64,000 nt of DNA from a virus. Position 1 is the stretch's first letter; each line of letters opens with the position of its first letter. Where the stretch lies: the IMG/VR virus record IMGVR_UViG_3300025892_000009, one strand, 5' to 3'. A program made the position numbers and the translations under genes. The notes under the pieces were generated by a model. That model was not told the origin of the DNA, did not search any database, and worked only from the letters and a program-made list of their open reading frames with translations. Below are positions 7,208 to 9,108 of the stretch, piece by piece.

Positions 7208-7281
7208 CGATTCAGGTAGGATTCGAACCTACGACCGAGGCATTAGAAGTGCCTTGCTCTATTCCACTGAGCTACTGAACC
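7208..7281 (-). tRNA. tRNA-Arg(UCU)
   Basis: Cloverleaf: GGTTCAG/CTGAATC acceptor, GCTC/GAGC D-arm, AGGCA-CT TCT AA-TGCCT anticodon arm, GTAGG-TTCGAAT-CCTAC T-arm; CCA not encoded. Confidence 0.96.
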
Positions 7282-8045: not shown

Positions 8046-8074
8046 ATTATATATGAAGAATAAGATCAGGTCAA
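8046..8074 (-). promoter_or_regulatory. sigma70-type promoter
   Basis: TTGACC(8074-8069)-17-TATAAT(8051-8046). Confidence 0.75.
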
Positions 8075-8403
8075 CCCTTAAAATTTTTAATAAACCATTC
8101 GGCATCCACTACAACCAGAGCCTTCTTACGATTCTTTTTCATAAAAAGAATGGGCTCATAGTCTCCTGAGTTGGCAGTTGCCTGATCGTATGCATCGTAT
8201 ACATTGAGTTTCTCTACATTCTTACACTCAATACTGAATGGAAATTTCTTTCTGGCATCTCTTGCCATGATTAGATCTTCTCCACCTGCACCCATAGATC
8301 TAGATTCTATGTCTTCTGGGTGGACATCCCTGTGCTCTATCAACATGTCCCTAACCCATTTCTGGAAATTCCTTCCTTTAGCTTTCGCACTTTGAGGTTT
8401 CAT
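8071..8403 (-). CDS. PD-(D/E)xK nuclease, Holliday-junction-resolvase-like
   Basis: KAKGRNFQ...GEDL...SIECKN pattern. Confidence 0.7.
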   Translation of the reverse strand: MKPQSAKAKGRNFQKWVRDMLIEHRDVHPEDIESRSMGAGGEDLIMARDARKKFPFSIECKNVEKLNVYDAYDQATANSGDYEPILFMKKNRKKALVVVDAEWFIKNFKG

Positions 8404-8646: not shown

Positions 8647-8831
8647 CCCCGTTCCTTCAGTCGTGTGCGTCCCAAGGGTAGCAATCAGGTGTTGATTCCT
8701 TCATGACCTCAATCAATTCTACCTTCATTTCTGGAGGAAGATTCTCATTTGTTCTCATCCGAAGCATAACTGCATCAGCTTGAGCACATGTGAGTGATGA
8801 ATAGAATAATAATTCTAGCATGGGATGAACG
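8647..8831 (-). ncRNA. Glutamine-II (Downstream-peptide) riboswitch-like aptamer 2, split by an ORF
   Basis: 5' half CGTTCATCCC (8831-8822) and 3' half GGGACGCACACGACTGAAGGAACGG (8673-8649); CGTTC/GAACG and TCCC/GGGA are complementary. Confidence 0.7.
8657..8821 (-). CDS. Small protein (54 aa) embedded in riboswitch-like aptamer
   Basis: Not in track. MLELLFYSSLTCAQADAVMLRMRTNENLPPEMKVELIEVMKESTPDCYPWDAHD; GGAG upstream. Confidence 0.75.
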   Translation of the reverse strand: MLELLFYSSLTCAQADAVMLRMRTNENLPPEMKVELIEVMKESTPDCYPWDAHD

Positions 8832-8834
8832 GCT

Positions 8835-8909
8835 CCGTTCCGCGACTTACTTGCGTCCTGTGGCGTCTTTCTATGCTATGTGCATAACGAATACCACCAT
8901 GGATGAACG
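8835..8909 (-). ncRNA. Glutamine-II riboswitch-like aptamer 1
   Basis: CGTTCATCC...(42-nt hairpin insert)...GGACGCAAGTAAGTCGCGGAACGG. Confidence 0.65.
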
Positions 8910-8934
8910 TATGGATAGTATACACCATCCAATA

Positions 8935-9108
8935 CTATTTATCAAGTTTTCCTTTTTTTCGACTTCGTGCTCTTCTTTTTAGTGGTCTTACCCTCTTCAA
9001 CTCTTGCTTCAGACTGCACAAAAACTTCAAGTGGTCCCGTATACCACTGGTCGGGTCCTGGCCAGGTGATCCTGGCACTTTCTTTTCCCAACTTCTTTTC
9101 CTCCCCAT
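8935..9108 (-). CDS. Small basic hypothetical protein (57 aa)
   Basis: Not in track. MGRKRSWEKKVPGSPGQDPTSGIRDHLKFLCSLKQELKRVRPLKRRARSRKKGKLDK; starts just after the nrdB stop, unlike track ORF 8942..9214. Confidence 0.6.
   Translation of the reverse strand: MGRKRSWEKKVPGSPGQDPTSGIRDHLKFLCSLKQELKRVRPLKRRARSRKKGKLDK

Follow-up and report, generated by a model that had tools for sequence, protein, structure and literature searches.

The window analysed here, a 64,000-nucleotide (nt) stretch of viral DNA (IMG/VR record IMGVR_UViG_3300025892_000009), belongs to a T4-like cyanomyovirus most closely related to Synechococcus phages. Glutamine-riboswitch core motifs occur in two sets at 8909-8649 on the minus strand, ahead of a DUF4278 gene, and the second set encloses a complete 54-codon open reading frame (ORF). 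Sequence comparison gives good support to the view that a covarying helix closes around this gene and is part of a composite glutamine riboswitch of the glnA type. We think it reasonably probable that the whole leader is one such riboswitch, with a nested second core and the embedded gene, and that it would have two states controlled by glutamine. Coordinates run 5' to 3' from high to low. Each set consists of CGUUCA (a1, a2), a helix (b1, b2), a linking strand (c1, c2) and GGAACGG (d1, d2), as laid out in Table 1; related loci and contigs are given by L numbers. All of the core motifs that a preliminary description of this DNA had assigned to glutamine riboswitches were found where it had placed them.

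The arrangement is widespread and its helices are maintained. From GGACGCAAG onward the sequence block recurs in 409 cyanophage records, and the same arrangement was found in at least 120 IMG/VR contigs in each of two pattern scans. Although the ORF bodies of six isolates share only about 70% identity, GGACGCAAGUAAGUCGCGGAACGGAG-CGUUCAUCCCAUG and UGGGACGCAmACGACUrAAGGAACGG are invariant among them. Pairing was counted in an alignment of 76 distinct phage loci, which is the source of the pair counts that follow. In that alignment 94.9% of the cells were paired, and changes on both sides were seen at 10 pairs. None of 500 shuffles reached either value and partners slid by 1-3 columns paired at 30-51%, so that the arrangement is far beyond chance. 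The P3 helix, AGUCG:CGACU, is 5 bp long and was paired in 100% of cases. Its compensatory variants were AGUCA:UGACU in 4 loci, AAUCG:CGAUU in 1 and AGACU:AGUCU in 1, together with several G-U intermediates, and two loci carried matched 3-nt insertions in both strands. The b2 helix, whose halves lie 140-195 nt apart across loci and about 150 nt apart in the window, covaried at its first pair (UA 72, CG 4), its third pair (CG 73, UA 2, UG 1) and its fourth pair (CG 55, UA 15, UG 3, AU 2). Whole variants of b2 included UCCCA/UGGGA, UCCUAUG/CAUAGGA, UCUAUG/CAUAGA, UCCUCAU/AUGAGGA, UCCCU/AGGGA and CCCCA/UGGGG. The two halves are thus held complementary by selection. In the b1 helix all three pairs varied on both sides (UA/AU/GC, CG/UA and CG/UA/AU).

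The ORF between the b2 strands, flanked by CGTTCATCCCATG and TGGGACGCACACGACTGAAGGAACGG, is a real gene, judging by its codon pattern, the suppression of synonymous change at its end, its membership of phrog_504 and a confidently modelled fold. Over codons 5-47 of 41 distinct 53-codon versions, codon positions 1, 2 and 3 had entropies of 1.05, 0.55 and 1.46 bits, as expected of a protein that is under purifying selection. At the five final codons and the stop, third-position entropies in these versions were only 0-0.17 bits, while the fully conserved C12, E35 and C47 still showed 0.7-1.0 bits. Where b2 pairs changed, residues changed with them, from WDAND to WGAND, QDAND or KDAND. C12 and C47 were invariant across 69 sequences. 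An AlphaFold model (predicted local distance difference test score 85.7) has helices at residues 12-24 and 30-43 that form a helical hairpin, followed by a floppy tail. The protein matched no Pfam family, its PHROG category is "unknown", no fold in the PDB matched at an E-value of 0.001, and every source name listed for 68 homologues is "hypothetical protein". The preliminary description had proposed a complete gene in a hairpin loop, a 3' half doubling as the C-terminal W-D-A-H-D-stop, covariation between the split halves and, as a check, suppressed synonymous variation in the C-terminal codons. The first of these holds, given the real ORF and the covarying strands about 150 nt apart; the second was confirmed by translation; and the last two were borne out by the b2 pairs and the third-position entropies. 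Many database versions of the protein are 79-82 amino acids (aa) long (P0001, P0002, P0007, P0008 and others). These probably have a wrong start, gene callers having apparently extended them upstream through the riboswitch.

The translation signals of the embedded gene are fixed relative to the RNA core. In nearly all loci the AUG is at +10 nt from the C of a2 (CGUUC), within b2. The loop of the inner P1 hairpin varies between loci in both length and sequence (GAG, GAGC, GAGU, GAU, GGUA, GAA and others). A less biased sample, one not shaped by the first search pattern, comprised 78 ORF-bearing and 10 ORF-less loci, so that ORF-bearing forms made up about 89% of it. GGAG, formed by the loop together with G8836, was present in 75 of the 78 ORF-bearing and in 0 of the 10 ORF-less loci (Fisher 6e-11, a value that ignores shared ancestry). 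Because GGAG tracks the presence of the ORF, the inner P1 loop is the embedded gene's Shine-Dalgarno sequence, as had been proposed for GAACG-GAGC-CGTTC.

The b1 helix also encloses a gene in about 30 of 116 loci, including L010 (7821-8018), L012, L014, L022, L045, L246-L249 and about 20 more IMG/VR loci. This gene encodes a phrog_6471 protein of 65-68 aa with two cysteines and a hydrophobic N-terminus. Its AUG is in the 5' strand of b1 and its stop codon in the 3' strand, and these strands covary (UCCUAUG/CAUAGGA, UCUUAUG/CAUAAGA, UCUCAUG/CAUGAGA). In the window the b1 loop holds instead a non-coding insert of 42 nt (8859-8900, minus strand) in common with contig L019. A 9-codon ORF in this loop (ATG at 8900) was rejected as a gene because it is not conserved: the L019 copy of the insert lacks the ATG. 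A lost gene may have left the insert behind, or the loop may simply tolerate it.

To which class the RNA belongs was judged against the two Rfam families of glutamine riboswitches, RF01739 (glnA RNA, type 1) and RF01704 (Downstream-peptide, type 2 or glutamine-II), with gathering thresholds of 35 and 33 bits, respectively. Neither family was called on the window at gathering, and RF01704 gave no match to the window even at an E-value of 10. The ORF-less relatives behaved differently from the window itself. L119 scored 46.4 bits on RF01739 as a single aptamer that extends from the first CGUUC to the last GGAACG; in the alignment, the 41 nt that separate AGU from ACU are treated as an insert in P3. 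Six more ORF-less contigs (L252, L255, L257, L259, L260 and L263) scored 38.4-43.6 bits in the same register, and the P3 insert of the ORF-less relatives was 38-41 nt. The core of the window differs from that of L119 by one base and one extra loop C. Two features of type 1 are present in the window: a UCC/GGA hairpin right after CGUUCA, followed by CG(G/C)AAGUA, where the window has CGCAAGUA in agreement with the RF01739 consensus CGGAAGUA; and the P3 helix, followed by GAAG and the P1 3' strand in agreement with the consensus GAAGGAACG. The strands of a candidate P1 are there as well and are complementary (8909-8905 with 8654-8650), but identical copies of them occur at 8840-8836 and 8831-8827, and all are invariant. 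Since the CGUUC and GAACG copies are identical and invariant, the P1 partners were assigned from P3, the loop-E consensus and the model scores.

Scored separately, the compact first unit of relatives gave 26.4-29.7 bits on RF01704 and 25-27 bits on RF01739, and another single unit gave 28.1 bits on RF01704. Tandem glutamine-II aptamers, the class assignment of the preliminary description, are therefore not supported: the covarying P3 joins the units, the separate units mostly fall below both thresholds, and the ORF-less relatives align as one glnA-type aptamer. The Rfam comparison that it had suggested turned out negative for the native window at gathering and positive, at 38-46 bits on RF01739, for natural ORF-less relatives, which were used in place of a loop-deleted sequence. 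As for GAACG-GAGC-CGTTC, the hairpin is real and is present in the unconstrained minimum-energy fold, but rather than being a mutually exclusive structure it is most simply the inner P1 of the folded state. The inner junction keeps the conserved binding-site bases, in the order of a circularly permuted type 1 core.

Table 1. Features of the riboswitch leader and its operon, in 5' to 3' order on the minus strand of the window.
Feature	Coordinates	Strand	Sequence and remarks
Sigma-70-like promoter	8945-8917	-	-35 TTGATA 8945-8940, 17-nt spacer, -10 TATACT 8922-8917; 10/12 consensus matches
Late-type-like box	8943-8936	-	GATAAATA; overlapped by the sigma-70-like promoter
8-bp inverted repeat	8931-8912	-	TGGATGGT/ACTATCCA; spans the -10 box, folds as a hairpin
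First core set		-	CGTTCA 8909-8904; TCC..GGA 8903-8901/8858-8856 with 42-nt loop; CGCAAGTAAGTCGCGGAACGG 8855-8835
Second core set		-	CGTTCA 8831-8826; TCCCATG 8825-8819; CTTGGGA 8676-8670; CGCACACGACTGAAGGAACGG 8669-8649
a1, outer P1 5' strand	8909-8904	-	CGUUCA; partner GAACG 8654-8650; invariant in 76 loci; aligned as RF01739 P1 in ORF-less relatives
b1, outer P2 hairpin	8903-8856	-	UCC 8903-8901 with GGA 8858-8856; 42-nt loop insert
c1, linking strand	8855-8848	-	CGCAAGUA; glnA-type J2/3 with AGUA half of loop E; (nearly) invariant
P3 5' strand	8847-8843	-	AGUCG; partner CGACU 8663-8659
d1	8841-8835	-	GGAACGG; preceded by AGUCG then C
Inner P1 hairpin	8841-8826	-	GAACG 8840-8836, loop GAGC 8835-8832, CGUUC 8831-8827, A8826
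a2	8831-8826	-	CGUUCA
b2 5' strand	8825-8819	-	UCCCAUG; holds ORF start codon 8821-8819; pairs with 8676-8670
Embedded gene	8821-8657	-	54 aa; predicted two-Cys helical hairpin protein, phrog_504; ends W-D-A-H-D-stop
b2 3' strand	8676-8670	-	CUUGGGA; codes part of C-terminal P-W-D
c2, inner-core linking strand	8669-8664	-	CGCACA, codons Ala-His; near-invariant; third-position entropy 0-0.17 bits
P3 3' strand	8663-8659	-	CGACU; overlaps Asp codon and first base of TGA stop
GAAG (loop-E half) and d2	8658-8649	-	GAAG 8658-8655; d2 GGAACGG 8655-8649, outer P1 3' strand and closing G; invariant in 76 loci (for GAAG see text)
Alternative stem-loop	8660-8627	-	CUGAAG 8660-8655 with UUUCAG 8632-8627; encloses hairpin GGGGU/ACCUC 8650-8646/8639-8635
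DUF4278-gene Shine-Dalgarno	8628-8624	-	AGGAG; first two bases within alternative stem
DUF4278 (IF17-like) gene	8615-8469	-	48 aa; Pfam PF14105 26.0 bits, cut-off 25.3; phrog_5049
Intrinsic terminator	8442-8420	-	AGACCCC-ACAA-GGGGUCU then UUUUU; read directly from sequence; hairpin also aligned in the Rfam scan at an E-value of 10

A second conserved structure competes with the folded outer core. The strands CUGAAG and UUUCAG of the alternative stem were paired in 99.6% of cases, with the third pair GC in 36 loci, AU in 26 and GU in 14, and never A-C; this third position coincides with the central base of the UGA or UAA stop codon. AAAG replaces GAAG in 26 of the 76 loci. The stem was seen both in the minimum-energy fold of the window and in the consensus fold of 71 tails, and the stop codon lies within its 5' strand in 108 of 115 ORFs. 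Its 3' strand ends in the first two bases of the DUF4278 AGGAG, of which GG is invariant and the whole is present in at least 90% of the loci. Because both structures use CU of P3 and GAAG of loop E, the alternative stem excludes the folded outer core, and such a pair of conserved structures that exclude each other is characteristic of a switch. In its structural part the earlier idea of a multi-state RNA thus stands, the exclusive helices being P3 and CUGAAG/UUUCAG. In about one fifth of the loci an extra module is found between GGAACGG and the 3' strand of the alternative stem, consisting of ACGGAUC, a covarying hairpin capped by GNRA or UUCG, and (U/G)AAAGG(A/U)G. Loci with this module include L003 (about 905-945, S-SSM5), L010, L026, L029, L034, L042, L078, L119 and others; the window is without it.

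In the mechanism that we propose, the outer core would be made of P1 (CGUUC 8909-8905 with GAACG 8654-8650), P2 (b1), the CGCAAGUA strand, P3 and the loop-E half GAAG. In place of a small loop, P3 would enclose a permuted inner core with its capped P1 (GAACG-GAGC-CGUUC), a P2 (UCCCA..UGGGA) and the strand CGCACA, and the loop of this inner P2 would be the complete 54-codon gene. When folded, the RNA would hold the embedded gene's Shine-Dalgarno in the inner P1 loop of 4 nt and the AUG in the P2 helix, while the gene's final codons and stop would fall within the inner linking strand, P3 and loop E. In the alternative state CUGAAG/UUUCAG would take the 3' end of P3 and loop E from the aptamer, and would end within the DUF4278 Shine-Dalgarno. 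Both types of glutamine aptamer bind glutamine and act as translational ON switches upstream of DUF4278/IF17 genes (PMC6212724). By homology, glutamine would stabilise the nested fold, releasing the alternative stem and freeing the DUF4278 ribosome site. The same nested fold would bury the Shine-Dalgarno and AUG of the embedded gene. Conversely, ribosomes initiating, translating or terminating on that gene would hold the sensor open, and a terminating ribosome would cover c2, P3, loop E and d2. With the gene located within an aptamer hairpin, sensor folding and translation should compete on one RNA. The regulatory logic is our inference, both as to whether and at how many sites the ligand binds and as to the direction and strength of control. 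The fullest version, which we put forward tentatively, is a ribosome-gated two-site sensor in which two glutamine cores share a helix, protein genes with base-paired start and stop regions occupy their hairpin loops, ligand competes with ribosomes, and the embedded Cys proteins and the IF17-like gene come under reciprocal or hysteretic control during infection.

Several observations weigh against the nested reading or qualify it. On the window itself RF01739 reached 13.5 bits over 8832-8911 only, in a scan at an E-value of 10, far below the family threshold; we attribute this to the model's inability to span an insert of about 180 nt in P3. Both P1 helices are invariant, and covariation therefore cannot separate the nested pairs (a1:d2 with d1:a2) from side-by-side pairs (a1:d1 with a2:d2). 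By nearest-neighbour calculation, which includes no ligand or tertiary energy, the nested fold has -81.8 kcal/mol, compared with -92.7 for the minimum-energy fold and -89.6 for a1:d1 plus the alternative stem. The inner core lacks the loop-E consensus and has its closing G in a loop of 3-4 nt, so that it may not bind ligand. With the nested fold enforced, the predicted accessibility of the DUF4278 Shine-Dalgarno did not rise (0.36 versus 0.35 in 71 loci), and the alternative stem covers only 2 of the 5 Shine-Dalgarno bases. Neither these values nor the energies lend support to the proposed ON switch. Finally, the a2-d2 unit of L260 scored 34.0 bits on RF01704, just above threshold, making a glutamine-II-like fold of that unit possible.

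The last score and the energies are what might be expected if the two units were separate aptamers side by side, with unit 1 (8909-8835) sensing glutamine and freeing the ORF's ribosome site and unit 2 controlling DUF4278. Unit 2 would then be a glutamine-II-type pseudoknot in which CGUUC 8831-8827 pairs with GAACG 8654-8650, P1 lies around the ORF and CUGAAG/UUUCAG serves as P2; the GAACG-GAGC-CGUUC hairpin would be the ligand-free alternative. Each unit has the conserved core bases, unit 1 is transcribed first, c2 (CGCA..CGAC) is similar to the glutamine-II linker consensus CGCAGUUcGAc, the secondary-structure model favours a1:d1 plus the stem over the nested fold by 8 kcal/mol, and the covarying CUGAAG/UUUCAG sits at the glutamine-II P2 position. 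However, RF01704 has a compact P2 whose 9-nt loop (AUGGAACGG) forms the pseudoknot with the 5' CGUUC, whereas CUGAAG/UUUCAG flanks GGAACGG with a loop of at least 25 nt that contains an inner hairpin, and its 5' strand overlaps P3. Further, the covarying P3 would have to be a pseudoknot without counterpart in either family, the two halves of loop E would be split between the units, AGUA in the first and GAAG in the second, and the units score 25-30 bits compared with 38-46 for the nested reading. We consider two separate aptamers unlikely.

Alternatively, both folds might be used in turn, the side-by-side fold during transcription allowing the ORF to be translated and the nested fold, later or at high glutamine, shutting the ORF off. 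The device would then have three states or show hysteresis, with ribosome traffic determining how available the sensor is, and DUF4278 would be partly coupled to termination at the UGA. Conservation with covariation of both P3 and CUGAAG/UUUCAG, although they are mutually exclusive, would be accounted for, as would the location of the stop codon in the alternative stem's 5' strand and the fixed positions of AUG and Shine-Dalgarno relative to the core. The accessibility model showed no effect, however, and coupling would make DUF4278 output nearly constitutive, which would be odd for a sensor; we hold such a device to be distinctly improbable. An ORF that is a passive passenger, in loops that tolerate insertions, with pairing kept only so that the sensor serves DUF4278 and with ORF translation lacking regulatory meaning, would agree with the occurrence of all four combinations, namely genes in b2 alone (the window), in both b1 and b2, in b1 alone (L246-L249) and in neither of them (L119 and others), and with the non-coding insert in the window's b1. 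Such a passenger would not be expected to have its AUG at a fixed distance within a helix in almost all loci, a Shine-Dalgarno that co-occurs with it in the inner P1 loop, stop codons in paired 3' strands, start and stop codons of the b1 ORF that pair with each other, or ORF-bearing forms in so large a share of the less biased sample. We give this explanation very little credence, and the nested composite riboswitch remains the reading we prefer.

The preliminary description had placed a late-type box and an 8-bp hairpin ahead of the two elements. The box GATAAATA and the hairpin are present as claimed, but a sigma-70-like promoter that overlaps the box fits at least equally well. In 74 of 104 related loci TTGAnn-N16-18-TAnnnT was found with the end of the -10 box 7-9 nt ahead of the first CGUUCA, and the promoter consensus of the relatives is close to TTGACT-N17-TATAAT. 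With a start at this promoter the 8-bp hairpin is a DNA palindrome around the -10 box, outside the RNA; the repeat is a 5' hairpin of the RNA only if transcription begins at the late-type box. Relatives with differing sequences keep a palindrome around the -10 box, and this covarying palindrome, centred as it is on the -10 box, could be an operator. If the sigma-70-like start is used, the b1 gene would have a leader of only about 10 nt. An NtcA-type box, GTA-N8-TAC, is found upstream of the promoter in 68 of the 104 related loci, 45-60 nt ahead of the first CGUUCA (for example in L023, L041 and L045); none was found upstream of the window's own promoter.

The gene after the switch is DUF4278 or phrog_545. 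In the window it is DUF4278, as had been claimed, by a Pfam match of 26.0 bits with a cut-off of 25.3. In most contigs (L005, L008-L014 and many others) the regulated gene is phrog_545, which encodes 54-56 aa, starts MNTL..IKKQI.KA.ALHDAQI, and has two YRG motifs and a weak DUF4278 match (18 bits versus the cut-off of 25.3). Directly after the terminator of the riboswitch operon, 8071-8403 on the minus strand encodes a 110-aa protein whose match to a phage PDDEXK endonuclease family, at 25.5 bits, falls just short of the cut-off of 27. Elsewhere the window encodes nrdB, a 2OG-Fe(II) oxygenase gene and a tRNA gene (7208-7281, minus strand, 68 bits), and has a PhotoRC-II RNA, a known cyanophage element, at 1537-1632 on the minus strand (74.2 bits on Rfam RF01717). 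A scan of bacterial and archaeal genomes for GGAACGG-N2-3-CGTTCATC gave matches of which the 120 listed resemble chance, and none of those checked has the flanking motifs.

The glnA motif was first described in PMC2864571, and the nearest known relative of the phage RNA is glnA type 1 as in the Synechocystis gifB/IF17 leader (PMC6212724). The two share the P1 strands CGUUC/GAACG, an adjacent P2, CG(G/C)AAGUA, P3, GAAG before the P1 3' strand and a position upstream of a DUF4278/IF17-like gene, and ORF-less phage relatives pass the type 1 threshold. Unlike the Synechocystis RNA, in which P3 has a short loop, the phage P3 encloses about 180 nt with a permuted core and a whole gene, so that there is an embedded gene with a ribosome site inside the aptamer; the host is also different, being a phage. 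With type 2 (RF01704; PMC6698751) the phage RNA shares binding-site bases, an inner linker (CGCA..CGAC) similar to that of the family, and a helix that flanks GGAACGG and adjoins the start region of the DUF4278 gene. In contrast to type 2, it lacks a compact P2 with a loop of 9 nt, the unit is tied by a covarying helix to its upstream neighbour, and apart from one borderline case the units fall below threshold. Since the glutamine-II aptamer can assemble from two separate RNAs (PMC6698751), a split of 150 nt is plausible. Double-core leaders likewise have two ligand-binding cores per leader, but here the cores are joined by a shared helix and are most simply nested.

ORFs in structured RNAs, in which translation and folding interfere, are also known from mgtL in the Salmonella mgtA Mg2+ leader and from homing-endonuclease genes in the loops of phage group I introns. 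The product of mgtL is a regulatory peptide of 17 codons, unlike the conserved folded protein here, and the intron ORFs sit in ribozymes rather than ligand sensors. Neither kind of ORF is known to have start and stop regions that form a helix of a ligand aptamer. In the texts covered, cyanophage glutamine riboswitches are noted only as Rfam hits (PMC9964418). A survey of 2017, in which no more than two glutamine aptamers turned up in cyanophage genomes, came to the conclusion that riboswitch use is rare among phages (PMC5473149). Within the coverage of a full-text literature search, which did not extend to Ames and Breaker 2011 and Ren et al. 2015, neither a gene in a glutamine riboswitch nor a nested double core is described.

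In sum, the layout appears to be a variant within a known riboswitch class, and the mechanism is plausible. The sensor is found in hundreds of cyanophage records and contigs, though riboswitches have been considered rare in phages, and it escapes standard covariance models since whole genes lie in one or two of its hairpins. This suggests that other RNA families, too, have members concealed by long inserts in "variable" loops. The leader would be a natural case in which helices of a ligand aptamer are built from the start and the end of a protein-coding gene, so that the RNA sets the protein's final residues and the sensor has to be unfolded for translation. How ribosomes and riboswitch folding act on each other can be tested directly on an RNA of 300 nt. 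A ribosome-gated two-site sensor, if true, would be a coupling of metabolite sensing to translation not known for any riboswitch class. IF17-like proteins inactivate glutamine synthetase in cyanobacteria, and the association of the sensor with such genes points to control of the host's nitrogen status by the phage through IF17-like proteins.

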